Source: Escherichia coli (GTDB lineage Bacteria; Pseudomonadota; Gammaproteobacteria; Enterobacterales; Enterobacteriaceae). From it: a stretch of 64,000 bases of DNA. The stretch lies in assembly GCF_050320075.1 (NCBI RefSeq), contig NZ_CP190018.1; one strand, given 5' to 3'. A program made the translations under genes and the position numbers. The notes beneath the pieces were generated by a model, which worked only from the letters and a program-made list of their open reading frames with translations, ran no database searches and had not been told where the DNA came from. Within the stretch, counting starts at the first letter, position 1, and each line of letters begins with the position of its first letter. Of the stretch, positions 3,210 through 37,709 are shown one piece after another.

Positions 3210-4406
3210 TTAAGGTGCTACAGCGTGTTTGCCTTCCCAGACAACTTCGCGGTAGTGCTTCACGTCTGTGTCGCCTTCAGTGCTGATAACCAGCACTACG
3301 GCATCTTTGTTCAGCGCCAGTTTTTCCATCAGGCTTTGACGTTGCGGGTGATAATGAACCGCTGCGAGAACGCCCAAACCGACAGCGCCGGATTCACCGG
3401 AGATGATGCGTGGGTCATTGCCGTACGGGTTACCCAGCACACGCATACCTAATGCGGCAACGCTGTCCTGGCAGGAGATGAATTGGGTGGCGCAGTTACG
3501 TAGGATTTCCCAGCCCAGCGGGTTAGGTTCGCCGCAGGCCAGGCCCGCCATGATGGTGGCCATATCACCGCCAACGTTGACGATGTCGCCTTTGACGCCG
3601 GAGCGATAAATACAGTCAGCTTTGTCAGGTTCAACAATAATGCTGTGCAGATTTTGCGGGCTGTAGACGTCGACCAGATAACCCAGCACACCACCGGCCA
3701 TTGCACCGACACCGGCTTGCAGCAGAACGTGCGTCGGGGTTACGCCCATTTCACGCATTTGCTCGACGGCTTCATCTGCCAGTGTTGCGTAGCCTTGCAT
3801 GATCCAGGTTGGGATTTTGGTGTAACCTTCCCAGGCGGTATCTTGCACCACTTCCCAGCCGTGCTGCTGCGCGTGTTGCATGGTCAGGCGAACGGTATCG
3901 TCATAGTTCATATCCGTGACGATGCACTCGGCACCGAGGTTCAGAATGGCGTCAACGCGTTCCTGAGCAGAACCTTTCGGCATGTAAATCACCGCATTCT
4001 GTCCGAGTTGCTGTGCTGCCCACGCCACACCGCGCCCGTGGTTGCCGTCGGTGGTGGTCGCGAAAGTCATTTTTTCGCCGATGGCATTTTTCAGGTGCTC
4101 AAATGACAGCGTTTCGATATCAAGATGATATTTTTCGCACAATAATTGAGCGATGGCGTATGCACCGCCGAGCATTTTGAAGGCGTTCAGACCGAATCGT
4201 TTTGATTCGTCTTTGACGAGAATTTTCTTCACACCAAAAAGGTTTGCGAGATCGTTCAGCGCACAAAGCGGTGTTGGGCGATAACCAGCAATTTTCTGGT
4301 GGAACTGGCGCGCCAGTTTGGCCTGGCTTTGCGAAAAGAGCGGTGATGTTTCGCCGTTGAAAAATTTGTTATCGGCGATATCAATCTTCAATGAGAAAAC
4401 GGACAT
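3210..4406 (-). CDS. ygeX: diaminopropionate ammonia-lyase (PLP-dependent)
   Basis: 398-aa ORF; PLP beta-family fold signatures (lysine-containing motif, glycine-rich loops); size and position match K-12 ygeX/dpaL as recalled. Confidence 0.85.
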   Translation of the reverse strand: MSVFSLKIDIADNKFFNGETSPLFSQSQAKLARQFHQKIAGYRPTPLCALNDLANLFGVKKILVKDESKRFGLNAFKMLGGAYAIAQLLCEKYHLDIETLSFEHLKNAIGEKMTFATTTDGNHGRGVAWAAQQLGQNAVIYMPKGSAQERVDAILNLGAECIVTDMNYDDTVRLTMQHAQQHGWEVVQDTAWEGYTKIPTWIMQGYATLADEAVEQMREMGVTPTHVLLQAGVGAMAGGVLGYLVDVYSPQNLHSIIVEPDKADCIYRSGVKGDIVNVGGDMATIMAGLACGEPNPLGWEILRNCATQFISCQDSVAALGMRVLGNPYGNDPRIISGESGAVGLGVLAAVHYHPQRQSLMEKLALNKDAVVLVISTEGDTDVKHYREVVWEGKHAVAP

Positions 4407-12856: not shown

Positions 12857-12930
12857 GCGGGCGTAGTTCAATGGTAGAACGAGAGCTTCCCAAGCTCTAT
12901 ACGAGGGTTCGATTCCCTTCGCCCGCTCAA
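12857..12930 (+). tRNA. glyU: tRNA-Gly (anticodon CCC)
   Basis: GCGGGCGTAGTTCAATGGTAGAACGAGAGCTTCCCAAGCTCTATACGAGGGTTCGATTCCCTTCGCCCGCTC; acceptor stem pairs, anticodon loop CTTCCCAAG, T-loop GGTTCGATTCC; 3' end reads CAA rather than CCA. Confidence 0.9.
12913..12928. repeat. attL core: 16-bp direct repeat (tRNA-Gly 3' end)
   Basis: TTCCCTTCGCCCGCTC identical to 32061..32076. Confidence 0.7.
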
Positions 12931-13094
12931 AACAAACATTTCTCAACGTCTACTGAAGTCCATCAAATCCACGAATATCAAGCCTTTCAGCCATTTTCAT
13001 AGCTTATTAACGTCTACTCACAACTACCAGAATCTACACACAGAAGTGTATAGTAATGCGTATAGGACAAAATTTATTTTTTGGAGCTATACAC

Positions 13095-14309
13095 ATGCTG
13101 CTTTCAGACCTTGCTATCAGGCGCGCGAAGCCGAAAGAAAAGGCTTATACACTCAATGACGGTAACGGGCTTTCGTTACTCATTGAGCCGAACGGCTCGA
13201 AAGGGTGGCGACTACGTTACAGATTTGCAGGAAAGCCCAAAATGTTGTCGTTGGGCGTGTACCCTGATGTGTCTCTGTCTGATGCCAGAGCGGCAAGGGA
13301 TGAGGCTAAAAGGCTTCTTGCTGGTGGTATAAATCCAAGTGAGGCCAGAAAAGCTCAAAAGCGAGAACAGGCGAGCAAATTTGGCAATACTTTTGAGGGT
13401 ATCGCTCGCGAATGGTATGAAAAGCGGATCGACAGGTGGTCATCGTCATACGCCGAGGAAATGATCGAGACGTTTGAAAAAGACGTTTTTCCGTACATTG
13501 GCGGCAGGCCGATCGCAGAAATTAAGCCAATGGAGTTGCTTGCGGTTCTCTCCCGTCTTAATGACCGTGGGGCGACCGAAAAATTGCGTAAGGTTCGCCA
13601 GCGATGCGGCGAGGTGTTCCGGTACGCAATCATCACCGGACGCGCTGAATATAACCCCGCACCAGATCTGGCAAGCGCATTTGCTCCACACAAAAAAGAG
13701 CATTATGCCTATTTGAAGGCCGACGAACTGCCGGAATTTTTCCGCGTTCTTAATACGTACACCGGAAGCCAGATCGTCAAGCTGGGTATGCGATTATTGA
13801 TTCTGACAGGGCTCCGGCCAGGGGAATTACGACAGGCAGAATGGCAGGAGATCGATTTTGATAATCGTTTGTGGGAAGTGCCTAAAGAACGAATGAAGAT
13901 GCGCCGTCCTCATTGTGTGCCGCTTTCAGAACAGGCGATCGCTATTCTGGAACAGTTAAAACACATGACGGGGCAGTATCAGTTTATTTTCCCTGGTCGA
14001 ATCCAGCACAGTAAGCCGATGAGTGAAATGGCGATGAACGTGCTTATTCGTCGTATTGGCTATTCTGGGCGCGTTACTGGTCATGGGTTCCGGCACACGA
14101 TGAGCACGATTTTACATGAGCAGGGCTATAACACCGCGTGGATAGAAACGCAGCTTGCACACGTTGATAAGAACTCAATTCGTGGCACGTACAATCATGC
14201 GCAATATCTGGACGGGCGGCGCGAGATGCTCCAGTGGTACGCCGACTATATGGACTCACTGGAACAGGGCGGCAACGTGGTGCATGGCAAGTTCGGAAAA
14301 TGTGGATGA
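13095..14309 (+). CDS. tyrosine integrase, P4-type
   Basis: ORF 13056..14309; N-terminal LSDLAIRRAKPKEKAYTLNDGNGLSL and catalytic-domain HGFRHT ... Y residues typical of P4/CP4-57-like integrases. Confidence 0.85.
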   Translation: MLLSDLAIRRAKPKEKAYTLNDGNGLSLLIEPNGSKGWRLRYRFAGKPKMLSLGVYPDVSLSDARAARDEAKRLLAGGINPSEARKAQKREQASKFGNTFEGIAREWYEKRIDRWSSSYAEEMIETFEKDVFPYIGGRPIAEIKPMELLAVLSRLNDRGATEKLRKVRQRCGEVFRYAIITGRAEYNPAPDLASAFAPHKKEHYAYLKADELPEFFRVLNTYTGSQIVKLGMRLLILTGLRPGELRQAEWQEIDFDNRLWEVPKERMKMRRPHCVPLSEQAIAILEQLKHMTGQYQFIFPGRIQHSKPMSEMAMNVLIRRIGYSGRVTGHGFRHTMSTILHEQGYNTAWIETQLAHVDKNSIRGTYNHAQYLDGRREMLQWYADYMDSLEQGGNVVHGKFGKCG

Positions 14310-14431
14310 CTGGTTGAGTATACAGTAGTAGACTTTGAGCGACGAAAGAAAAAGCTGTGTCTAGGGTCGCTCCCGAAAAACCGTATACCTCGACGGGCTG
14401 GCACAGCCACTACAGTAGAGGACGCTGAGGT

Positions 14432-15235
14432 GTGCGTATGATTGATATTCATGCCGAATTAAACGAATACAAAAAAGATTTTATTTCTTTACGTGAATTT
14501 CTTGAGGTCGTGCTTAAGGTCGCTGGTGATGATTATGATGTTTCAGATCTCATAACTTGGATACTCAGGAGAATAAGCGGAGAACATATCCGCCTGTACA
14601 CAGTAAATGAATTTAAGCTGTTGGAATCTTTTTGTAACCCGTATCGGGATGAATTTGATTATGATGTTCTTTATAGAAATCTGGATGCGGTTCGGAAACA
14701 TGGTTGTTTACCTGGTGAGAGGGATGAAAATGGTTTTCTGGTGTCCGGTTATTGGGAAGATCCCGAATTTGAGAACATTGGATTTATAAGGGGTGAAATT
14801 TTCGCAATTTTTCCCGATGTCCTTGACGCGTTAACGAAGCTGGAAGGCGCTAACTCTTCTGAAAATGACGAGGTACAAGGACGCGATATTGAAAAGAAAG
14901 AGTTGCGTACAGAGGATGATTTATTATCCCAAATCGCAATGCTGGAAAGAGAAAACGCAGAGTTAAGGGCAAGGATAGAGCAGTTAGAGCAAGAGCGCCC
15001 GATACACTTATATAAATACTGGGATAAAGACCCATTAGCTAAGGCTATTGAGATTAGAAACAGAGAGTGGGCCAATTACGATCCAGAAAATGATTTTGCC
15101 ACCAGGGGAAATCAAGAAGCGATAACCAGGGAGCTTAAGCAGTGGGGGGCAAGTAATGCTCTTGCAACGCTCATAGAGAGGACTGCCTGCCCTATTAACC
15201 GAGACAACAGCCAAAAGAACGCAAAGCCGGATTAA
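14432..15235 (+). CDS. hypothetical protein (267 aa), acidic with coiled-coil segment
   Basis: Long ORF in AT-rich DNA between int and alpA; heptad-like LSQIAMLERENAELRARIEQLEQE; no family recognised. Confidence 0.5.
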   Translation: MRMIDIHAELNEYKKDFISLREFLEVVLKVAGDDYDVSDLITWILRRISGEHIRLYTVNEFKLLESFCNPYRDEFDYDVLYRNLDAVRKHGCLPGERDENGFLVSGYWEDPEFENIGFIRGEIFAIFPDVLDALTKLEGANSSENDEVQGRDIEKKELRTEDDLLSQIAMLERENAELRARIEQLEQERPIHLYKYWDKDPLAKAIEIRNREWANYDPENDFATRGNQEAITRELKQWGASNALATLIERTACPINRDNSQKNAKPD

Positions 15236-15248
15236 CGCACCATACCGC

Positions 15249-15399
15249 ATACCCTGAGGGTGATTTACTGTTACCCTGAGGGTATTTTTTTATCTTCCCC
15301 GTCAATTTTACCATCACCCTTAGGGTAGATTTCCTCCCGATTACCATCACCCTTAGGGTTAATTTCCTTCCGGTAACCATTAGGCCTGAGGGTATGAAA
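15249..15399. repeat. array of five palindromic ACCCT(G/T)AGGGT motifs (putative regulator binding sites)
   Basis: taccctgagggt x2, catcacccttagggt(a/t) x2 within a 33-bp direct repeat, ggcctgagggta; located just upstream of alpA. Confidence 0.6.
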
Positions 15400-15462
15400 A
15401 TATTCGTTATTTCTGTGCCATGATTACCTCGTCAAATTGAGTAGACGTTATGAGGTAAATAG

Positions 15463-15660
15463 ATGTCAAATACGCTTATTCGTTTAACAGAAGTTCAGCG
15501 TAGAACTGGATATAGCAAGGCATGGATTTATCGCCTTATGGGGCAAGGTAAATTTCCTGCATCAGTTAAAATTGGCTCGCGAGCGATTGCTTTCGTTGAA
15601 AGTGAAATTGACGAATGGATCAATCAGCGTATTGCCGAATCACGCGGAACGGCTGCCTGA
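15463..15660 (+). CDS. alpA: AlpA-family transcriptional regulator / excisionase-like (MerR-type HTH)
   Basis: 65 aa, LTEVQRRTGYSKAWIYRLMGQGKFP motif characteristic of AlpA/phage regulatory protein. Confidence 0.8.
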   Translation: MSNTLIRLTEVQRRTGYSKAWIYRLMGQGKFPASVKIGSRAIAFVESEIDEWINQRIAESRGTAA

Positions 15661-15735
15661 TTAAATAGCTACGGGTTATTGCCCAAGCTATCCACTAGCA
15701 AATAAAAAGTAACTTAATTCGATAGCGGAGTTTTT

Positions 15736-16560
15736 ATGAAACTGCGAAAAACGCCCGTACAGGGGCAGGGCTTTGTTCGGCCTGAAAACCAGAATCTGCA
15801 AAATTTCGGCGAAATTATCCCGGTTATTTCCGGCGTTATTGGCGGGCGTGAAGCCGCTGTTGTTAGCGCAAAAGCGTTACACAAAGCGTTGGGCGTGGGA
15901 AAAGACTTCTCTACATGGATCACTGATCGTATCTCTGAATATGACTTCACCATTGGGTACGATTACTCAGTCCATAAAACAATTTCCCCAAATTTGGGGA
16001 AAAGCCCGAATGGCGAGGCTTACAGCAAGATTAAGCACTCTGGCAGACCCGGTAAAGACTATCTGTTAAGTGTCGGAATGGCGAAAGAACTGGCAATGAT
16101 CGAACGCACCGAACAGGGCCGCGCCGTTCGTCAGTACTTCATCAAATGCGAGGAGGAGCTACACAAAGTAGCGCCAGTGCGTTCCGCAGCGTTACGCCGT
16201 GAACTGAAAGCCCGTATCACCGTTGCCAGCTACTTTAAGCCGATGTGTGCCGCGCTGGAGGCGTACCGCGCTGAACTGGGTAAAAACACGCTCCAGCACC
16301 ACTACACCACGGAAGCCAATATGCTGGCGCGTATCGTGCTGGGTGGCATGACTGCAAAACAGTGGGCGCAGGCGAACGGCATCACAGGCGAACCACGCGA
16401 CCACATGAGCACGCTGCAGCTTGAGCACCTTTCTTACCTTGAGCAGAGCAATATCACGCTGATTGAGTTAGGCCAGGACTACCACCAGCGGAAAGCTGAA
16501 TTAATTCGTCTTTCGCAACGCTGGTTAGCCCGCCGCATGGAGGTGAGCAGCCATGCGTAA
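15736..16560 (+). CDS. phage antirepressor-like protein (KilA-C-like domain), tentative
   Basis: 274 aa; position after alpA and adjacency to a Bro-N gene; domain call is from memory of motif content only. Confidence 0.45.
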   Translation: MKLRKTPVQGQGFVRPENQNLQNFGEIIPVISGVIGGREAAVVSAKALHKALGVGKDFSTWITDRISEYDFTIGYDYSVHKTISPNLGKSPNGEAYSKIKHSGRPGKDYLLSVGMAKELAMIERTEQGRAVRQYFIKCEEELHKVAPVRSAALRRELKARITVASYFKPMCAALEAYRAELGKNTLQHHYTTEANMLARIVLGGMTAKQWAQANGITGEPRDHMSTLQLEHLSYLEQSNITLIELGQDYHQRKAELIRLSQRWLARRMEVSSHA

Positions 16561-17110
16561 ACCTGTCTTTTATGCCGGGCGCACTGAAATCTCTGTCATT
16601 AAATTCGATGACATTCAGGTGCGCATAGTGAGTATCAACGGCGAGCCGTGGTTTGTTGGCGCTGATGTGTGTGCTGCGCTGGAAATCAGCAATGTTACTG
16701 ATGCTGTTTCAGTTCTGGATAACGACGAGGTAATGACCCTAGCTTTAACCGAGGGGCATTCCGGTAAGCGTGGTGGTGCCAGAAGCTGGAATGTTGTCTC
16801 TGAATCAGGTTTCTACAAACTGATCGCCCGCAGCCGTAAAGCTTCCACACCTGGCACATTTGCGCACCGTTTCAGTAACTGGGTATTCCGCGAGGTTATT
16901 CCTTCAATCCGCAAAACGGGGAGTTATGGTGTTCCGTTTGCCATGCTGAATGATTTCAGTAAACGCCAGGCTGCATATCAACAGGAAGCCAGCAAACGCG
17001 GTTACAGGTTACAGCAATGCAAAGAGGCAAAAGATGCACTGGAACGAGAAGAGCGGGCGCTATGGCGTAAATATCAGCCTGATTTTCTGGAGGGTGAAAG
17101 CAATGTGTAA
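16553..17110 (+). CDS. Bro-N domain protein (prophage antirepressor family), tentative
   Basis: 185 aa; N-terminal FxFxxxxVRxxxxxGEPWFV pattern typical of Bro-N; start overlaps previous stop. Confidence 0.5.
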   Translation: MRKPVFYAGRTEISVIKFDDIQVRIVSINGEPWFVGADVCAALEISNVTDAVSVLDNDEVMTLALTEGHSGKRGGARSWNVVSESGFYKLIARSRKASTPGTFAHRFSNWVFREVIPSIRKTGSYGVPFAMLNDFSKRQAAYQQEASKRGYRLQQCKEAKDALEREERALWRKYQPDFLEGESNV

Positions 17111-17278
17111 CGATCCGAACGTTACAGAAAGAAAAAGCGCCCCGTTGCTGGATAACAGGCAAAACAAAGGCGACCGGGATAGGTCGCCAGTGGGAACAAA
17201 GGAAATCAAACGCATCGCCAACAATGCCAGATTTGCGGCTGGTGGGCAATGTGATCAGTGTGCTGGCTTGCTGGTGGG

Positions 17279-17476
17279 CTATTCCTGCTCTTTAGCATCG
17301 CCATACTGCGATGTTTTCCAGGTATGCGATCCCATTTTTGTGCGCCTGTACTCTTTTAAGAACTTCTCAAGGACAAACGCACATGGTGCAAATCTTTCCT
17401 GTTCTTGTTCGCTTACCGCATTTTTGCGTTGTTTTTTCCTGGATGAGGATAATTTCTTTAATGATTTGTCAGTCAT
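17279..17476 (-). CDS. small basic protein, diverged paralogue of the adjacent 65-aa gene
   Basis: 65 aa; shares C-terminal ...AKEQE and upstream nucleotide similarity with 17534..17731. Confidence 0.3.
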   Translation of the reverse strand: MTDKSLKKLSSSRKKQRKNAVSEQEQERFAPCAFVLEKFLKEYRRTKMGSHTWKTSQYGDAKEQE

Positions 17477-17533
17477 CGTAGATACCTGTAACCCTGTGCG
17501 CCACAGTTCACCGCACCACGGCGCTGGTGATGG

Positions 17534-17731
17534 TTACTCCTGCTCTTTGGCCTTCCGGCGCTGTTCATATTTTAATTTGCGTCCACAGGCATCTAAGACC
17601 CATGCGGAAAAATTAGCACTAGGATTAGTTAATTTTTCTTGTTCAACACTGGCATCAATCCCATCTATAAGCTCGTGCGGGAATCGAATATTTTTCTTTG
17701 CTGATTTGTTGTTTGTGTTTCCGCTAGACAT
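17534..17731 (-). CDS. small DNA-binding-like protein (YlcI/YnfO-like, tentative)
   Basis: 65 aa; IRFPHELIDGIDA ... NFSAWVLDAC resembles small prophage regulators as I recall them; divergent from the rightward operon. Confidence 0.45.
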   Translation of the reverse strand: MSSGNTNNKSAKKNIRFPHELIDGIDASVEQEKLTNPSANFSAWVLDACGRKLKYEQRRKAKEQE

Positions 17732-17757
17732 TGGTACACCTCACTTAAATGGATTTG

Positions 17758-17841
17758 ATGGGCGCACACAATACAGCAAAAAAAGTGAGAAGTTAAGTAT
17801 TGACATGTGCGCACACATGATTTTAATCTGTGCGCACAGTT
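17758..17841. promoter_or_regulatory. three (T)GTGCGCACA palindromes overlapping a TTGACA -35 box (operator/promoter region)
   Basis: ggcgcacaca (17761), TTGACAtgtgcgcacacatg (17801), ctgtgcgcacag (17828). Confidence 0.5.
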
Positions 17842-18132
17842 TGGGTTGCATTGCTCAAATTAAGCAACGCCCCGCAGTGCTCGCAACACATGCAGGGCGT
17901 CTAACCACCAACGATAGAAAGCGTATCGAGGTAGCTATGTTAAATCATACCACACACCCGCAAGGGCGGGACTCGCACAACCTGAATAAATACATCTGGC
18001 GTTTTATCGCCCTGAGCACCGCACAACCACGCGTAATACACATCGAGGCCGCCAGCGAACAGGAAGCCCGTCAGCAATCCCCGGCTGGCTGCGTGATGGT
18101 ATTTACTGCCCGCATCCGTCAGGGGGAATACT

Positions 18133-18390
18133 ATGCGTGATGAACGATTTATTCTTCTGGAGCAAAAATTCAGTGAAGCGCCAAAAAATGAAATTGATGC
18201 TCTTTTGCATATCGCGAATATGCTAAAAGTAGCAACGTTCCTTATAGTTTCGAATCTGGAGCATGAAACGGCGTTAGATATACTGAACAGTGCTGTCGAT
18301 TATTCTGAATATATTGCCGAGGATAAATACAGGCAATTACCAGATTTGTTAGCCCATAAATATAAAGAAGAACCTCACACCGGGAAATAA
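18133..18390 (+). CDS. hypothetical protein (85 aa)
   Basis: ORF in operon context upstream of the replication protein. Confidence 0.4.
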   Translation: MRDERFILLEQKFSEAPKNEIDALLHIANMLKVATFLIVSNLEHETALDILNSAVDYSEYIAEDKYRQLPDLLAHKYKEEPHTGK

Positions 18391-18392
18391 AC

Positions 18393-18695
18393 ATGAAGAA
18401 GATTAAATTTACTGGCTTAAATGCCAGCGGACAGACTCACCCGAAAATCAGGATCGGGGATATTTTCCGGGATAAATATGGTGACAGCGTGGTTATTAAT
18501 TCCGTGTATGAACGGCACATTACATACCGCCGCGCAGGGTACGACTATGACTGTGTGATGCCCGTTCATCAGTTCCGGCGTGATTTTTCACTGGTATGTG
18601 CAGTACCACGCAGTAAGCCCACCAGTAAAGAGAAAGCACGGGCAAATATTCAGGTAATAAAGAACATGATTAACGCATTCAGGGGCAAGAAATGA
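18393..18695 (+). CDS. hypothetical protein (100 aa)
   Basis: ORF tightly spaced, its stop overlaps the next start. Confidence 0.4.
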   Translation: MKKIKFTGLNASGQTHPKIRIGDIFRDKYGDSVVINSVYERHITYRRAGYDYDCVMPVHQFRRDFSLVCAVPRSKPTSKEKARANIQVIKNMINAFRGKK

Positions 18696-27645: not shown

Positions 27646-30401
27646 TGAAACAGGCATGTGTTGAAGCTATTGCGCAGACACTTGGTCGCCAGCCAAAGGC
27701 TGATGAGCTGAAAAATATCGAAGATCGTATCAAAGAAGCAGTGCAACATGTGCACAGAAAGAATGCAAAAGAAGGCAAAAGTGGTATTCCTGATGCTCAA
27801 ACATACATGGATGCTGCAGAACTGGTACGCCAGCGTGTGGTTCATGATGTGTACAAGAAAAGACAGCGTGTTGCCCAGAATGCGATCGCCATCAGTAAAA
27901 TTACTGACACTCTCGATGCTAACATCCCGCCTGATCAGCAGACACCTGTTAATTTGCAGCAGTTTATTTTTGCTGGCCGACGATCGAGAGACAAAGCTGA
28001 TATCTCCGTTGCTTCTGCTGAAGAGCTTGCAATTGGGGCATATCAGGACTGGTCCCGTCAGCTCAGTGCTGAACTTCTAAAAGCAGGTGATGACGTCCGC
28101 AAATTCTTCGAGCAGAGCAGGGCGCTTGGAGAGCAGCGGTTTCGGAGTGTATTCGACAGGCAGGCGGCAAAGTCTGCACAACTCCAGATCCTGAAAGAAA
28201 TTTATGGCGAAGATACCGGGAATCCCCTGGCGAAGAAAATTGCACAGATTTGGAAGGATGTAACAGGCCGTGTTCGTCATGAGATGAACGACAACGGCTT
28301 TGACATAGGCCTGCGAGAAGACTGGCATACGCCATATGTGGATGATGCTGACCTTATTCGCAATGCCGGGCGCGAAGAATGGCTGGCATCGTTACCAGTG
28401 GCAGAGCAAGCTACAGCACGTCTTTCAGGTCGCCAGCCACCGATTGAGTTTGCCCGCCAGAAATGGGTTGATGACGCTTACAACACGCAGGATCGCAGCA
28501 ATTACGTTAATCCTGACGGCAGCATTATGAATGACGTCGAGTACCGTCAGGCACTGGAAGCGATCTTTGAAACGAAGGCCACTGATGGGGCAAACAAAAT
28601 TGAGCCCGGTACATTTATGGGAGCCGGAGGAATAAAGAGCCGTGGTTCTCAGCACAGGGGGATGGCGTTCAAGGATGCGCAGTCACACTTCGCCTATATG
28701 GAGCGATACACTCAGCAGCCGCTGGTGGGGGTGATGATGTCGCACCTGCAATCATCATCCAGGGATTTGGGCGTCGTTAAAGCCTTTGGTCCGGACGCCG
28801 AAAGAAACTTTTCCCTGGTACTGGATCGCATCTATAAGCGCGCAGTAACAGGCGGGAAACGCAAAAAAGAAATGGAGGATGAGGCCAAATTAGTAGCCCG
28901 TATGTTCAACTCAATGGCTGGCCTAAATGGTGTCGCTTCATCGAGTGTGTTCTCTTCAGCTGTTGGTGGTCTGCGTAACCTGATGACCAGCGCCATGCTT
29001 GGCACCAGCGTACTGACAGCAACCAGCGACCAGGCAATTATGCGGGCAAATGCGCAGGCGCTGGGCTTTACCCGTGGTGGAATGCGGCTTTCCGTTAACA
29101 CTATCAAAAACCTGTTTAGTGGAGATGCCAAAAAGGCGAATGCTGAACTCGGTCTGCTGGTGGATTCACATGCTGCTGTGGTTTCGAAAATGGGCGGGTT
29201 TGACTTGTCTCGCGGCATAACTGGCTGGTTCGCAGAGAAGACACTGAAGTGGTCCGGGCTGATCGCTATGGACCGCGCAAACAAAGCGTCGTTTGGTCTC
29301 CTGATGTACAAAAACATTGGCGAGCTGACCAGAAAATTTAAGACGCTGGACGATATGAAAGGAACCGATAAAACCATTCTGGCTAACAAGGGATGGAGCA
29401 ATGAGGACTGGGCCATCATGGCAGCGGCAGAACTCAGGCCGATGACTACTGCCGGGCATATGGGGATGACGCCAGACGCGATTTACGCTGTGCCCGATAA
29501 CGTAATCGCCGACATTATGGCAGACCGTATTACCCGGATTCGTGCCGGGAGTGAAAAGGCACTGGCAGCACTTGGAGATCTCCCTCCAGAACGCCTGAAA
29601 CGGATGAAAGAAGCATTCGACGCTGAGGCTGAGCAGACCATCACGCGCATGATTCGTAATGCACGCGCTGAAGCAGCCCATAAATTGCTGGGAATTACGC
29701 ACGGTGAGATGACCAATGCTGTGACCACCGCTACGGGTATTGATACATATGCCCGTGATGATGCTGGCGAGTTAATGAAGAGCTTCATGCTCTTCAAAAC
29801 AACCCCATTTGCTGGATTTCGGCAACTTGTTAACAGAACACGGGATTTGGACACCGTTCCGGCCATTAAATTTCTGGCCTCATATATCGGGGGAACAACT
29901 CTTGCTGGTATGTTTGCGATCCAGATGAACAGTTTGTTAAATGGTAATGATCCGCTGGATATGACAAAACCAACCACATGGGTTCAGGCTTTACTGAAAG
30001 GTGGTTCGTTCGGTATCTACGGTGATTTTATTTTCCAGGACCATACGCAATATGGCTCCAGCATCGGTGCCACTATGGGTGGCCCTGTGTTGAGCTTTGC
30101 AGAGCAGTTAACAAAATTACTGATTACTAACCCACAGAAGGCTCTACAGGGTGAAGAAACATCATTCGGTGCCGATGCACTGAAAACAGCCCGCATGATC
30201 ACCCCATTCGCAAACCTGTGGTATGCGAAAGCGATAACCAATCACCTGATATTGCAACAACTTCAGGAGATGGCAAACCCTGGTTACAATGATCGAGTAA
30301 GGGACCGCGCGCAACGGGAGTTCGACATAACGAGTTGGTGGGAACCGGGTGCTATTGCGCCACGTAGAGCACCGGATTTTGGAAAGGCGGTGGGGAACTG
30401 A
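27645..30401 (+). CDS. large hypothetical protein (about 918 aa)
   Basis: ATG at 27645 overlaps previous stop (TAATG); ORF track 27624..30401. Confidence 0.65.
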   Translation: MKQACVEAIAQTLGRQPKADELKNIEDRIKEAVQHVHRKNAKEGKSGIPDAQTYMDAAELVRQRVVHDVYKKRQRVAQNAIAISKITDTLDANIPPDQQTPVNLQQFIFAGRRSRDKADISVASAEELAIGAYQDWSRQLSAELLKAGDDVRKFFEQSRALGEQRFRSVFDRQAAKSAQLQILKEIYGEDTGNPLAKKIAQIWKDVTGRVRHEMNDNGFDIGLREDWHTPYVDDADLIRNAGREEWLASLPVAEQATARLSGRQPPIEFARQKWVDDAYNTQDRSNYVNPDGSIMNDVEYRQALEAIFETKATDGANKIEPGTFMGAGGIKSRGSQHRGMAFKDAQSHFAYMERYTQQPLVGVMMSHLQSSSRDLGVVKAFGPDAERNFSLVLDRIYKRAVTGGKRKKEMEDEAKLVARMFNSMAGLNGVASSSVFSSAVGGLRNLMTSAMLGTSVLTATSDQAIMRANAQALGFTRGGMRLSVNTIKNLFSGDAKKANAELGLLVDSHAAVVSKMGGFDLSRGITGWFAEKTLKWSGLIAMDRANKASFGLLMYKNIGELTRKFKTLDDMKGTDKTILANKGWSNEDWAIMAAAELRPMTTAGHMGMTPDAIYAVPDNVIADIMADRITRIRAGSEKALAALGDLPPERLKRMKEAFDAEAEQTITRMIRNARAEAAHKLLGITHGEMTNAVTTATGIDTYARDDAGELMKSFMLFKTTPFAGFRQLVNRTRDLDTVPAIKFLASYIGGTTLAGMFAIQMNSLLNGNDPLDMTKPTTWVQALLKGGSFGIYGDFIFQDHTQYGSSIGATMGGPVLSFAEQLTKLLITNPQKALQGEETSFGADALKTARMITPFANLWYAKAITNHLILQQLQEMANPGYNDRVRDRAQREFDITSWWEPGAIAPRRAPDFGKAVGN

Positions 30402-30715
30402 TGACGAGAGATAAAATTGAATATATTGCTTCTCTTAAATATGAAGCTGAGAAATGGAGAAGGATTGGCTGGTGGGGAACATTAATATCACTCTCTGCTT
30501 TACTTATAGACTCCTGGTTCAGACATATTGATGCAGCATCATTACTTTTTGAATCAGCAGTACTTGGTGGATTCATTTGCTGTTGGGGTGGTAATTATGA
30601 TCGGGCGTCCAAACATAAGAGAGAACTTGACGCGATATGTTTTGCTTTATTCGGTAAGGATTACGAAAGTTCTGACCTTGATATAATTGAATTCAACAAA
30701 ACGGAACTATCGTGA
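30401..30715 (+). CDS. small membrane protein (104 aa)
   Basis: Start overlaps previous stop (TGATG); two hydrophobic helices (WWGTLISLSALLI, AVLGGFICCWGG). Confidence 0.5.
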   Translation: MTRDKIEYIASLKYEAEKWRRIGWWGTLISLSALLIDSWFRHIDAASLLFESAVLGGFICCWGGNYDRASKHKRELDAICFALFGKDYESSDLDIIEFNKTELS

Positions 30716-30723
30716 CATGTCAC

Positions 30724-30749
30724 AGGCCGCTTTCGCGGCCTTGTTTTTA
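30724..30749 (+). terminator. intrinsic terminator ending the cargo operon
   Basis: AGGCCGCTTTCGCGGCCT followed by TGTTTTTA. Confidence 0.6.
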
Positions 30750-31417
30750 ACGAATGCCACCGCCGCCCGGGCGGGAATTCGCAGATAAAAAAGCACGCTG
30801 CACGGTTTTATTAATACTTATACCATTAGGATTGATCCTTCAATGGACAATCCTTCCATCGTGTGGCCAGCCATTCATATTCTTTGTCTTTTCTTCAGTA
30901 TCGGCTTTGCATCTTCTACACCCTGAAAGATGTCGTTTTATGGTGTATCTGATGATTTATTCCCTAACAATAGATATTCGAAAAATTAATCAGTTAAAAC
31001 AATTATTTGGATAATTTCAGGTAAAACTATCTTAATCTTCTGGTGGATCTCAATGCGTAGTGACGGTATCGGGATTAAGGGCGTGGATATTCGCGATATA
31101 TGCCGCTACACCCCTCAACAGTAATAGATATGAGCTTTTCACGCTCTCCTTTCACTGCTGAGAACGGCAACAACGTGCCACAGGAACGCGCTGTAATCGA
31201 TTCTGACGCACTTAATTGCGTTGGGTAATGGTTTTTGCCAGCCTGTGGGGGTAACTCTGTTTTATGAGGCTTTGGCTATAGTGCAAAAATACACTTTGTC
31301 TTGCCTCTCAATTTGATGAGACTGGAACGACAACAGGACAGACCACCAGCAACAGTTACCGTATTCAGCCGTTCTGTGGCACCAGTGGAACTATCAACCC
31401 CTGCTTTCAGAAATGTG

Positions 31418-31573
31418 TTTGCGGGTTATTTTGGGGCGTTTGCGGGTTATTTGGGATGTTTTGCGGGTTATGTGATGCTTGAATAATGAACAGTGTATTT
31501 TGCAACATATTGATACTAAAGAACAAAAAATAGTTAGAATACTAAGATAACCCGGTAACCCGCATAACCCGCA
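31418..31573. repeat. iteron cluster 2: three GTTTGCGGGTTAT and three TAACCCG(C/G)A copies flanking an AT-rich spacer
   Basis: gtttgcgggttatt x2, ttttgcgggttatg, then ataacccggtaacccgcataacccgca; same motif as cluster 1. Confidence 0.6.
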
Positions 31574-31978
31574 CTGTTTTGTATATATATACGAAAAATT
31601 GCATTCAGGAGGGGGGGAGCGAAATCCCTACAATCCATTGCTTATGGGACCGCCCGCCTCGTCAAATTTTTACACCCGCGAAATAAAAAAATACTTCACG
31701 CTGGTGGGCATGATGCTGATATGGGAGGCTTCCATAACGCCACCATTCGGAACTATGCAAATCTGCATAGAAAAGGGGATGCCTGATACAATACCCTCGC
31801 CCGATAAAATCACACCGATAAACTCATCTGCCACGAGTAGAAAGAGCGAACGAACCCGATACGCAGTAATGCTTGTCGGGTACAGCTTTTTAAGGCGGCT
31901 GTAGATATCAGGCCATCCGTGATCATCCACCAGCGAGATAGCCGATAACGATGACGCATAACCCTCAAGCGAGGGATA

Positions 31979-32003
31979 AATGTGTATAGAAATGTGTATA
32001 GAA
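31979..32003. repeat. tandem ATGTGTATAGAA repeats (candidate integrase arm-type sites)
   Basis: aatgtgtatagaa-atgtgtatagaa about 58 bp from attR; related gtgtatag / ctatacaca motifs near int at 13040-13092. Confidence 0.35.
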
Positions 32004-32060
32004 TTGATTTTAGAACTCGCAGGATTCGCGCTATTACTGGCCTTGTGTGATGTTGTATTG

Positions 32061-32076
32061 TTCCCTTCGCCCGCTC
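32061..32076. repeat. attR core: 16-bp direct repeat of the tRNA-Gly 3' end, followed by CA (intact CCA context)
   Basis: TTCCCTTCGCCCGCTC identical to 12913..12928. Confidence 0.7.
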
Positions 32077-35604: not shown

Positions 35605-36701
35605 AATACTATAATTAAACTACAATTAAACTATCTTTTATAAATTCTTTTATCTTTTAAAGAATAATTATAGGGATACCCGTTAGGGAGTCTTCGACTA
35701 TCCCTTAATCTATTGGCATTCGCCAGAACCTTGCACAAGTTAGACTGATGCTTGTCATAACAGATAGTTTTTGTTTTTTGTTAGTAGTTAGCTGATCTAT
35801 GTTCGCTTTCCGCTCACAACGAATATGTAATCTACTATGTGCAAATAGCCTACGGCTTGCGTATGGCTAATAGTCTTGCGCTGTGCGCAGAACGATAATT
35901 AACTAACTACCATCTAACGATTGAAATTTACTTGTGCAATAACCTGAGCATAAGCGAATGGTTGTTAGTGTCTATGCGCTGTGCGCTTCAATAGTTCCAT
36001 TGATGAGGCTTACGCCAATCTAACGATCATCAATCTATTTAAGAGAAAATCTATTGTGCAATACTCTGACGAGTGCAATAACCTTGTGTGCTACGCGTTA
36101 GCGATGTTAGCACATAGACACAGACAACAACCAACAACAAACAAAAAAGAAAGAATGGTTTTAGTAGTTGAAGGTTAAATAAGTTTCTACCGCTTAAATC
36201 AAGCCGTAGGCGAGCTAAACGTATATAAGGTAGGGAAACACTTAGCGGTAATAGATTAGCTCGTTATAGAGCTTCTGAGGAGCTTTACAGGTATTTTATA
36301 AGATGTCTGAAATCAGAGTTTATCTATCCACCATCTTTCCATCATCTGATAAATCAAAAATAAGCCCCTTAAATAAGCCTCTGACGAGATAAACAACCTC
36401 TACATAAGGGAATGTATTGTTTTTATCAAAACCCCCGTCAGAGTGCGATTGAGAGCGTTTTAGACAACAGGGAAGAATTGTACCAGAGTAGGCAGCACAA
36501 AAAGCTAAGAAAAATTATAAGAAATTGAAAATGATCAAGTTTTTTATAAAAGAGGGTTGACAAAGCCGCCGTTATGTAGTATTGTAAGTAGGGAGGGGAG
36601 AAACATCTCTCTCCATCTAAATAATCAAATCACAGAACACTGCACTTTGAGCCGTCAGGCTGCAAGGTGTGTTTTTCTTTTATCTAAATAAGGAGTTTTT
36701 T

Positions 36702-36884
36702 ATGAAATGGTATACACCGGAACACGTCGTAGAGGCATTTAAAAAAGGTGAGCTAACACGACATCAAGTAAGGATGAACAGGAACACAGCGCGGCGCTGT
36801 GGTTATCCAGAGCGTGAAAAATGCTTTGACGATGCACTAAAAATTATTGATGAACTGCGTAAGGCAGAAGCAGAGAAAGAATAA
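36702..36884 (+). CDS. small hypothetical protein (60 aa)
   Basis: ATG with AAGGAG 8 nt upstream; MKWYTPEHVVEAFKKGELTRHQ. Confidence 0.35.
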   Translation: MKWYTPEHVVEAFKKGELTRHQVRMNRNTARRCGYPEREKCFDDALKIIDELRKAEAEKE

Positions 36885-36907
36885 TAACAGGAGAAGGAGA
36901 AAACCAA

Positions 36908-37087
36908 ATGAATATTAATTTTGATTCTGCAACTTATAACGCGTTGTTAAATCGTGCAAAGGCAGAAGGGAAATCAATTCCAAAACTTGTTAATGAATTA
37001 CTAATTACAGTCCTTACAAAGGAGGAACTAAATGAACCAAAACACCAAAACAATTGCCGAAGCAAAAGCGCAATGCCTCAATAAGAA
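36908..37087 (+). CDS. small ribbon-helix-helix-like protein (about 59 aa), tentative
   Basis: Manual translation MNINFDSATYNALLNRAKAEGKSIPKLVNELL; GGAGAAAA upstream. Confidence 0.3.
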
Positions 37088-37697
37088 AGATAGTAAACAA
37101 ACATATGTAGTAGTTGAACAATGGCTGAAGATGTTTAAAAAGTGGTTCTCACCGTCAGGTAAGGAATACACCGCGACACTTCCAGCCGTTGAAATCTACA
37201 GTTACGTAGCTGGGTTCAATGAACAAGGGCAAGAATGTTACGCCAATCAAAAAACATTAGCTAATATTGGAATGGTTAGTGATCGTCAGGTGCGTAATAT
37301 TATAAATATGTTTATTGATATGGGTGTTCTTTCTGTAGAGGCACGGGACGGGCAAACATCACTCTATAAAGCATTACCCTTTACAGATGCACACATCACA
37401 CCACCGGAAGACGTAAAAACCTCTGTAAACGTAGAACAGCCTGCACCTGAAACACAGGAACCGTTAGAAGCGACACACTCTATTGAGCAGGAAACACAGG
37501 CAGAAATCACGGAACAATCTGATCTTTTTACATGGCTTATTTCCATAGACAGCCAAAAGCCTATGCAAGAAGAAACAGAAAATTTTATAAAACGTGCACT
37601 GACCTCGAAGAGGATAATTCTTGAAGATGATGCTTTTAATGCACTGATGATAGCCCTGAGAAAAGAAAGTGAAATCTATGACTCAATACCATTTTAA
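37032..37697 (+). CDS. hypothetical protein (221 aa), possible winged-helix DNA-binding / replication-initiator-like protein with acidic C-terminal half
   Basis: TLANIGMVSDRQVRNIINMFIDMGVL helix-turn-helix-like segment; functional call is weak. Confidence 0.35.
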   Translation: MNQNTKTIAEAKAQCLNKKDSKQTYVVVEQWLKMFKKWFSPSGKEYTATLPAVEIYSYVAGFNEQGQECYANQKTLANIGMVSDRQVRNIINMFIDMGVLSVEARDGQTSLYKALPFTDAHITPPEDVKTSVNVEQPAPETQEPLEATHSIEQETQAEITEQSDLFTWLISIDSQKPMQEETENFIKRALTSKRIILEDDAFNALMIALRKESEIYDSIPF

Positions 37698-37709
37698 GGA
37701 GAATAAAAA

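Follow-up and report, generated by a model that had tools for sequence, protein, structure and literature searches.

Three short, related palindromes lie between two divergent gene sets on an E. coli chromosomal island, next to a TTGACA hexamer. Are they the operators of a repressor and, if so, which protein of the island would bind them and what would it control? We addressed this question in the window, i.e. the whole stretch of 64,000 nucleotides of contig NZ_CP190018.1 that was analysed here, and in related loci from E. coli and other bacteria. Altogether, our analysis indicates that the three sites, termed O1 to O3, are probably operators of the adjacent 65-aa DUF3950 protein, which together would form an autoregulated switch that silences the replication operon.

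The island and its divergent genes

The palindromes belong to a 19.2-kb int-alpA island that is inserted at the tRNA-Gly gene of the E. coli chromosome and bounded by probable attachment sites (Table 1). Its rightward genes start with an integrase, a hypothetical gene, an AlpA-like HTH protein and AntA/B and BRO-N proteins. Two small leftward genes (17279-17476 and 17534-17731) follow 3' of the BRO-N zone, and the second of these is separated by a gap of 205 bp from a rightward operon that begins with an icd-like gene. The first-pass annotation had described this operon as leading to a replication protein, and indeed it is a tight series of overlapping genes that terminates in a 708-aa DUF927 primase. 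Genes for SSB, ProQ/FinO and PerC and four large ORFs without assignment come after the primase. The order of int, AlpA-like HTH, Bro-N zone, primase, SSB and PerC is that of Gram-negative PICIs, and the same order of modules is found in EcCICFT073 and in the EDL933-type element. No annotated capsid, rpp, terS-like or packaging gene lies within 12913-32076.

Other parts of the island and its surroundings are recorded here for completeness. The AntA/AntB-type and BRO-N 'antirepressor'-like genes (15736-17110, plus strand), located between alpA and the candidate repressor operon, form the variable 'Bro zone' of Gram-negative PICIs, which is missing in several islands with the same operators. Downstream of the integrase gene, and before the ORF that follows it, the sequence matches the Rfam int-alpA RNA motif (RF02996; 46.9 bits at a gathering score of 35.8; 14354-14421, plus strand). 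Four co-directional cargo ORFs of 843, 686, 918 and 104 aa occupy the right end of the island (23054-30715, plus strand); they gave zero matches in PADLOC and NCBIfam and could represent an uncharacterised defence or accessory system. The island is adjoined, at about 36700-46200, by a second mobile element which, as annotated in the identical RefSeq record, contains numerous small ORFs along with genes for a major capsid protein and a leftward integrase; IS1 comes after it. Positions 61096-61219 (plus strand) match the Hfq-binding sRNA STnc490 over its full length (RF01405, 143.9 bits).

Table 1. Features of the island and of its divergent promoter region; positions refer to the window.
Feature	Position	Strand	Description
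Probable attL/attR	12913-12928 and 32061-32076		16-bp direct repeat TTCCCTTCGCCCGCTC; 3' end of tRNA-Gly and its copy
Second small ORF	17279-17476	-	65 aa, phrog_21027; predicted co-transcription with the DUF3950 gene
Candidate repressor gene	17534-17731	-	65 aa, WP_000094456; DUF3950, YlcI-YnfO family
O1	17759-17768		TGGGCGCACA, palindrome match 9/10; over -10 and predicted start of the leftward promoter
PL -10 candidate	17768-17773	-	TATTGT, read from the sequence
PL -35, weak	17791-17796	-	TTAACT
PR -35	17800-17805	+	TTGACA; T32 T33 G33 A33 C29 in 33 distinct related sequences
O2	17806-17815		TGTGCGCACA, exact; 14-mer CATGTGCGCACACA at 17804-17817; fills the PR -35/-10 spacer
PR -10, alternative	17822-17827	+	TTTAAT, 16-bp spacer
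PR -10 candidate	17824-17829	+	TAATCT, 18-bp spacer; TAnnnT here: T25 A31 T28 of 33
O3	17828-17839		CTGTGCGCACAG, exact 12-bp palindrome; TGTGCGCACA exact within, at 17829-17838
Leader hairpin HP1	17867-17900	+	followed by conserved CTAACCACCAAC; covariation
Leader hairpin HP2	17912-17928	+	abuts the Shine-Dalgarno GAGG (17928-17931) of the icd-like gene
Rightward operon	17937-20818	+	icd-like 17937-18140, hypothetical 18133-18390, DUF4222 18393-18695, DUF927 primase 18692-20818

Three sites on two predicted promoters

The initial description of three palindromes was correct for O2 and O3, which are exact copies, and had to be relaxed for O1, which deviates by one mismatch and is an imperfect palindrome. 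The clustering of the sites exceeds chance. Three matches fall within 81 bp, none of 300 block-wise dinucleotide shuffles contained three or more matches per 100 bp, and a Poisson scan puts the estimate for such a cluster at about 2.5e-5; likewise, the best triple of 12-mers in the intergenic region was equalled by none of 300 shuffles. Outside the three sites, the 64 kb hold one further match to TGTGCGCACA with at most one mismatch (at 35882), and with up to two mismatches neither the island nor the 64 kb is enriched in additional target sites beyond chance. The overlap of a palindrome with the TTGACA box, also part of the first description, applies to the extended 14-mer of O2, which covers the last two bases of the hexamer; the 10-mer only abuts it.

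With respect to the putative rightward (PR) and leftward (PL) promoters, O3 covers the 3' end of the PR -10 and the predicted start site (~17836; for PL, the start is expected near 17761), and on the opposite strand a TATnnT hexamer runs into O1 (in the window TATTGT, 17773 to 17768). Hence, with O1 on the leftward and O3 on the rightward -10/start region, the relation between site and promoter is the same in both directions. A consensus promoter scan did not call PR because its -10 candidates are imperfect: TAATCT agrees with TATAAT in 3 of 6 positions, and position 2 of TTTAAT is not an A. We therefore base the assignment of the promoter on its conservation. The distances of 47 bp between O1 and O2 and of 23 bp between O2 and O3 are not helically in phase, so that no cooperative geometry is evident in the window.

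We assessed conservation in 36 related loci: eight E. coli islands of the same layout, EcCICFT073, one O157 element, and 26 loci that the protein alignment retrieved from Orbales and from Enterobacterales other than E. coli. As regards co-resident islands, the second element seen in 'clone D i2' does not occur at the corresponding position in CFT073. The same architecture recurs in E. coli, Serratia, Rahnella, Pectobacterium, Klebsiella, Pantoea, Xenorhabdus, Brenneria, Affinibrenneria, Proteus, Arsenophonus and Symbiopectobacterium and, among Orbales, in Gilliamella and Orbus. The 33 distinct sequences retain the TTGAC of the -35 and the TAnnnT of the -10 with an 18-bp spacer, whereas the DNA between and after these elements varies. 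When loci are aligned on the -35, the centre of O2 falls at position +11 from the start of this hexamer; O3 follows O2 at 23 bp in 27 of the 36 loci, and most of them have an O1 equivalent 45-47 bp ahead of O2. A minus-strand TAT(A/T/G)(G/C/T)T likewise adjoins O1 in most related loci, and for most loci the best triple of 12-mers beats all or nearly all shuffles.

The dyad itself changes from island to island, and its three copies change together: O2 and O3 agree in 11.2 of 14 positions within a locus and in 7.3 of 14 between loci whose proteins differ at the N-terminus. The window shares TGTGCGCACA with the E. coli island L004 and two Rahnella loci (L014 and L015). Other variants are GTGTTCAACAC in L005, GTGCGATTCAC in L006 and L007, GTGTGTTTCA in L008 and L009, TGGGCCACACC in EcCICFT073, GTGGGGGTGCAC in Klebsiella and GTGTATATGCAC-like sites in several Serratia, Brenneria and Pectobacterium loci, and Gilliamella and Orbus carry TGTGCGGACA as non-palindromic direct repeats. 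By our reading of these sequences, at least a dozen distinct operator variants exist among the 36 loci. Fixed positions combined with concerted variation are the expected signature of an immunity-type switch, and this comparison supports such a switch here; promoter activity, binding and derepression we infer from it.

A DUF3950 protein that varies with the operators

Both leftward genes had been taken for YlcI-like genes on first inspection. For the gene next to the sites this was borne out: its product matches the YlcI/YnfO model NF041551 with 59 bits (cut-off 30) and PF13132 with E=1.6e-6, and PGAP names WP_000094456 a YlcI/YnfO family protein. The gene at 17279-17476 is not part of this assignment, as its product has no match in Pfam or NCBIfam, nor to a toxin family. 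The E. coli islands retain this second small ORF irrespective of their operators, and so does the O157 island, which has an Arc-like protein; no copy was detected in the 26 loci from outside E. coli, which have all three sites. Together, the two genes are arranged in an antitoxin-toxin-like order. In the freely accessible literature, we found no functional description of YlcI/YnfO or DUF3950 proteins. The homologue in EcCICFT073 is C_RS30120.

Which protein of the island follows the operators? Operator similarity correlates with identity of the N-terminal 14 aa of the adjacent small protein, i.e. the part before an invariant R-F-P motif (Mantel r=0.75, p=1e-4), and does so when the rest of the protein is controlled for (partial r=0.60, p=1e-4; reverse partial r=0.26), although these statistics are inflated because gene and operators are adjacent, and thus inherited together, and because the loci are phylogenetically related. 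Pairwise comparisons agree with this association. The two Rahnella loci combine the N-terminus of the window protein (SSGNTNNKSAKKN) with TGTGCGCACA sites in diverged flanking DNA. L003 and L009 have identical integrases and AlpA-like proteins and differ in the small protein and the operators; L006 and L007, as well as L008 and L009, share small protein and operators and differ in integrase, AlpA-like protein and replicase. The window and L004 have identical operators and different AlpA-like proteins, and L012 and L013 have the same protein and operators upstream of a different first ORF. Among E. coli loci of different operator types, identity amounts to 82-95% for the icd-like protein and, for the second small ORF, to 57-67% relative to the version of the window and 67-100% relative to that of CFT073. 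As such, the operators do not track AlpA, the integrase, the replicase, the icd-like gene or the second small gene, and these sequence comparisons point to the DUF3950 protein as their specificity determinant. Conserved hexamers, fixed and concertedly varying sites and an operator sequence that follows the adjacent small divergent gene all speak for the repressor-controlled early promoter that the first-pass annotation had proposed.

How might such a small protein recognise DNA? A candidate β-strand motif, NIRFPHE, resembles NLRWPRE of Arc, in a register that we take to place residues 12, 14 and 16 at the base-contacting Q9, N11 and R13 of Arc. R16 is invariant in the protein alignment, and the four columns most strongly associated with operator type are 12 and 14 plus 3 and 6 in the arm. 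In the monomer model (pLDDT 74), the N-terminus is extended and helices span residues 19-35 and 41-64. A linker-fused single-chain dimer was modelled with low confidence (pLDDT 61) and contains no strand and no β ribbon. Pfam returned no significant ribbon-helix-helix family for the window protein, the CFT073 variant or the O157 Arc-like variant, and a PDB profile search and Foldseek with the DUF3950 protein gave nothing significant. Altogether, the protein is likely a ribbon-helix-helix repressor that acts as a dimer; the evidence for this fold is moderate and the assignment is not established.

Variants of the candidate repressor in E. coli have a common C-terminal tail, RRQRRKAKEQE. In the EDL933-type element of E. 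coli O157:H7 EC4115 (L011), a different, unannotated small protein (MSTPLEKRSPPYQMRLPEDF..., Pfam Arc E 0.04) is encoded at about 3900-4080; it is Arc-like and unrelated to DUF3950, yet occupies the same island position, and GGTAATTACC palindromes lie there on a TTGACA promoter that overlaps its start codon. DUF3950 homologues of about 43% identity are also encoded by lambda, 434, HK629 and other lambdoid phages, and that of phage O276 (L040) runs leftward at 200-394, 200-400 bp from the right genome end near cos. Lambda is a helper of EcCICFT073. Since this helper carries a DUF3950 homologue, cross-talk with the island protein is conceivable.

Alternative readings and the proposed switch

The comparisons above also bear on whether another island protein, namely the AlpA-like HTH protein, the icd-like protein or the second small ORF, binds the sites, with the DUF3950 protein having another role. 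Each of these candidates has something in its favour: for AlpA, activation of EcCICFT073 gene transcription has been proven (PMC6092414); phrog_6196 and phrog_1743, the families that the icd-like protein matches, carry the label 'transcriptional repressor'; and the second small ORF, which is basic, is predicted to share a transcript with the DUF3950 gene. However, identical AlpA-like proteins accompany different operators (L003 and L009) and different ones accompany identical operators (L006/L007, L008/L009, and the window and L004), the icd-like protein and the second small ORF both stay highly similar across operator types, and the latter is missing from non-E. coli loci that retain the three-site layout. 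We thus consider a different binder unlikely. A similarly small chance is left for an addiction pair, in which the DUF3950 protein and the downstream small ORF act like antitoxin and toxin, with mainly autoregulatory sites and incidental control of the rightward genes. What argues against this is the placement of O2 and O3, which are 45-70 bp upstream of the leftward -10 and exactly on the conserved PR -35 spacer, -10 and start region; moreover, the presumed toxin has no toxin-family match and went undetected in 26 non-E. coli loci that possess all three sites.

Could the sites instead belong to the host, or act as structures in their own right? A host transcription factor that recognises a generic GTG...CAC dyad would explain why the outer GTG/CAC triplets are common to most operator variants, but not why inner bases and register vary between islands and yet are shared by the three sites of any one island. 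Different island types also occur within the same species, and the motif is not enriched elsewhere in the 64 kb, which makes this reading very unlikely. A CRP site has the form TGTGA-N6-TCACA, whose spacing O1 to O3 do not fit. It is extremely unlikely that the palindromes are nucleic-acid hairpins (terminator or attenuator) or replication iterons. A scan does flag 17804-17819 with its T-rich tail as terminator-like on the plus strand, but all sites lie at or upstream of the predicted start, they repeat each other, and non-palindromic forms exist, as in the TGTGCGGACA direct repeats of Gilliamella and Orbus. Because the T-rich tail after O2 is not conserved in related loci, we rejected O2 as a terminator. 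As to iterons, a paper citing the EcCICFT073 work places the PICI origin downstream of pri (PMC10111431).

Two hairpins are predicted downstream of the sites, in the leader of the rightward transcript; 1571 of 5426 complete E. coli genomes share this leader. In 25 sequences of HP1 and HP2, 96% of the cells are paired and compensatory changes affect 11 of 15 pairs (4 of 5 in HP2), with G-U intermediates nearly absent, as would also be compatible with a role at the level of DNA; none of 500 shuffles reached the observed covariation values. Rfam gave no C4, isrK or CI match at the gathering threshold, nor at E<=5 over 17300-18700, where the leader matched no other family either, and blastn of 17840-18140 against a phage collection retrieved a packaged PICI only, without similarity to P4. 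An RNA-based immunity of the P4/P1 type was rejected on these grounds.

We thus favour the autoregulated switch built on the DUF3950 protein. Bound to O2 in the spacer and to O3 at the -10 and start, this protein would exclude RNA polymerase from PR, and such occlusion would keep the operon of icd-like, DUF4222 and primase genes, the replication operon of the satellite island, silent. Its binding to O1 would curb transcription from the leftward promoter and hence its own synthesis. Because the specificities of protein and operators differ among islands, the module behaves like an immunity region. How repression would be lifted is a matter of speculation; it may involve the helper-induced activator AlpA, e.g. 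through convergent read-through, or an antirepressor encoded by the helper. Indeed, alpA transcription is convergent into the leftward operon, so that interference or read-through is one possibility. In EcCICFT073, AlpA is an activator needed for island induction and transfer, and its over-expression alone set off excision and replication (PMC6092414). Since over-expressed AlpA sufficed there, existing data do not formally require a repressor.

The proposed arrangement resembles known systems in different respects. In immI of P22, Arc and Mnt are ribbon-helix-helix repressors at the divergent Pant/Pmnt promoters; as we propose here, a small repressor gene of this type is divergent from the controlled operon, the operators lie in the core promoter and the repressor autoregulates. 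Unlike Arc, which has one 21-bp operator, the DUF3950 protein faces three separate dyads spaced by 47 and 23 bp; it has no significant sequence or Pfam match to Arc, and the genes under control are a satellite replication module rather than an antirepressor. Lambdoid cI/cro regions share with our locus three related dyads that span divergent promoters (OR1-3) and modular, mutually distinct specificities, but the fold here is apparently not HTH, and neither a Cro-like antagonist nor a LexA-like cleavage domain was identified. P4 (PLE, CI RNA) and P1 immI (c4 RNA-icd-ant) have, as predicted for the island, an early promoter followed by a structured leader and an icd/kil-like small gene, whereas control here is apparently exerted by a protein at the DNA level. 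In SaPIs and Gram-positive PICIs, the gene of the master repressor Stl (Rpr) is likewise divergent from the replication operon, at the stl-str promoters, and this is the presumed point of island quiescence, as we propose here (PMC6092414). Stl proteins are larger HTH repressors that are inactivated by helper-phage proteins, in contrast to the 65-aa DUF3950 protein. The kind of system is well known, its design matching that of P22 Arc/Mnt and its function that of SaPI Stl, with a protein family to which no function had been assigned.

The authors who defined Gram-negative PICIs noted in 2018 that it was unclear whether these islands possess a global repressor, only the activator AlpA being characterised (PMC6092414). 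CI/C4-like RNAs are reported for other Gram-negative PICIs (PMC10111431), and according to a 2023 survey the zone that separates alpA from the replication genes consists of Bro-network genes and immunity RNAs. No description of the present module was found in the freely accessible PICI and EcCICFT073 literature. Whether DUF3950/YlcI-type proteins are what Gram-negative PICIs, EcCICFT073 among them, use as the so far missing master repressor and immunity determinant, with an unrelated Arc-like substitute in some islands such as the O157 type, appears to us evenly balanced.

In summary, our study names a concrete candidate, amenable to testing, for the switch that silences a large satellite family. 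If the proposal is true, helper induction via AlpA overrides or bypasses this switch, and a first function is assigned to a family that includes its namesakes ylcI and ynfO of E. coli K-12 as well as the ORF at the right end of lambda. The module would also supply a natural set of mutually distinct small repressor/operator pairs. Gram-negative PICIs are widespread and carry virulence, defence and other cargo; a defined repressor with three operators would thus open island silencing, the switch-on by helper phages and the immunity between co-resident islands to experimental test.
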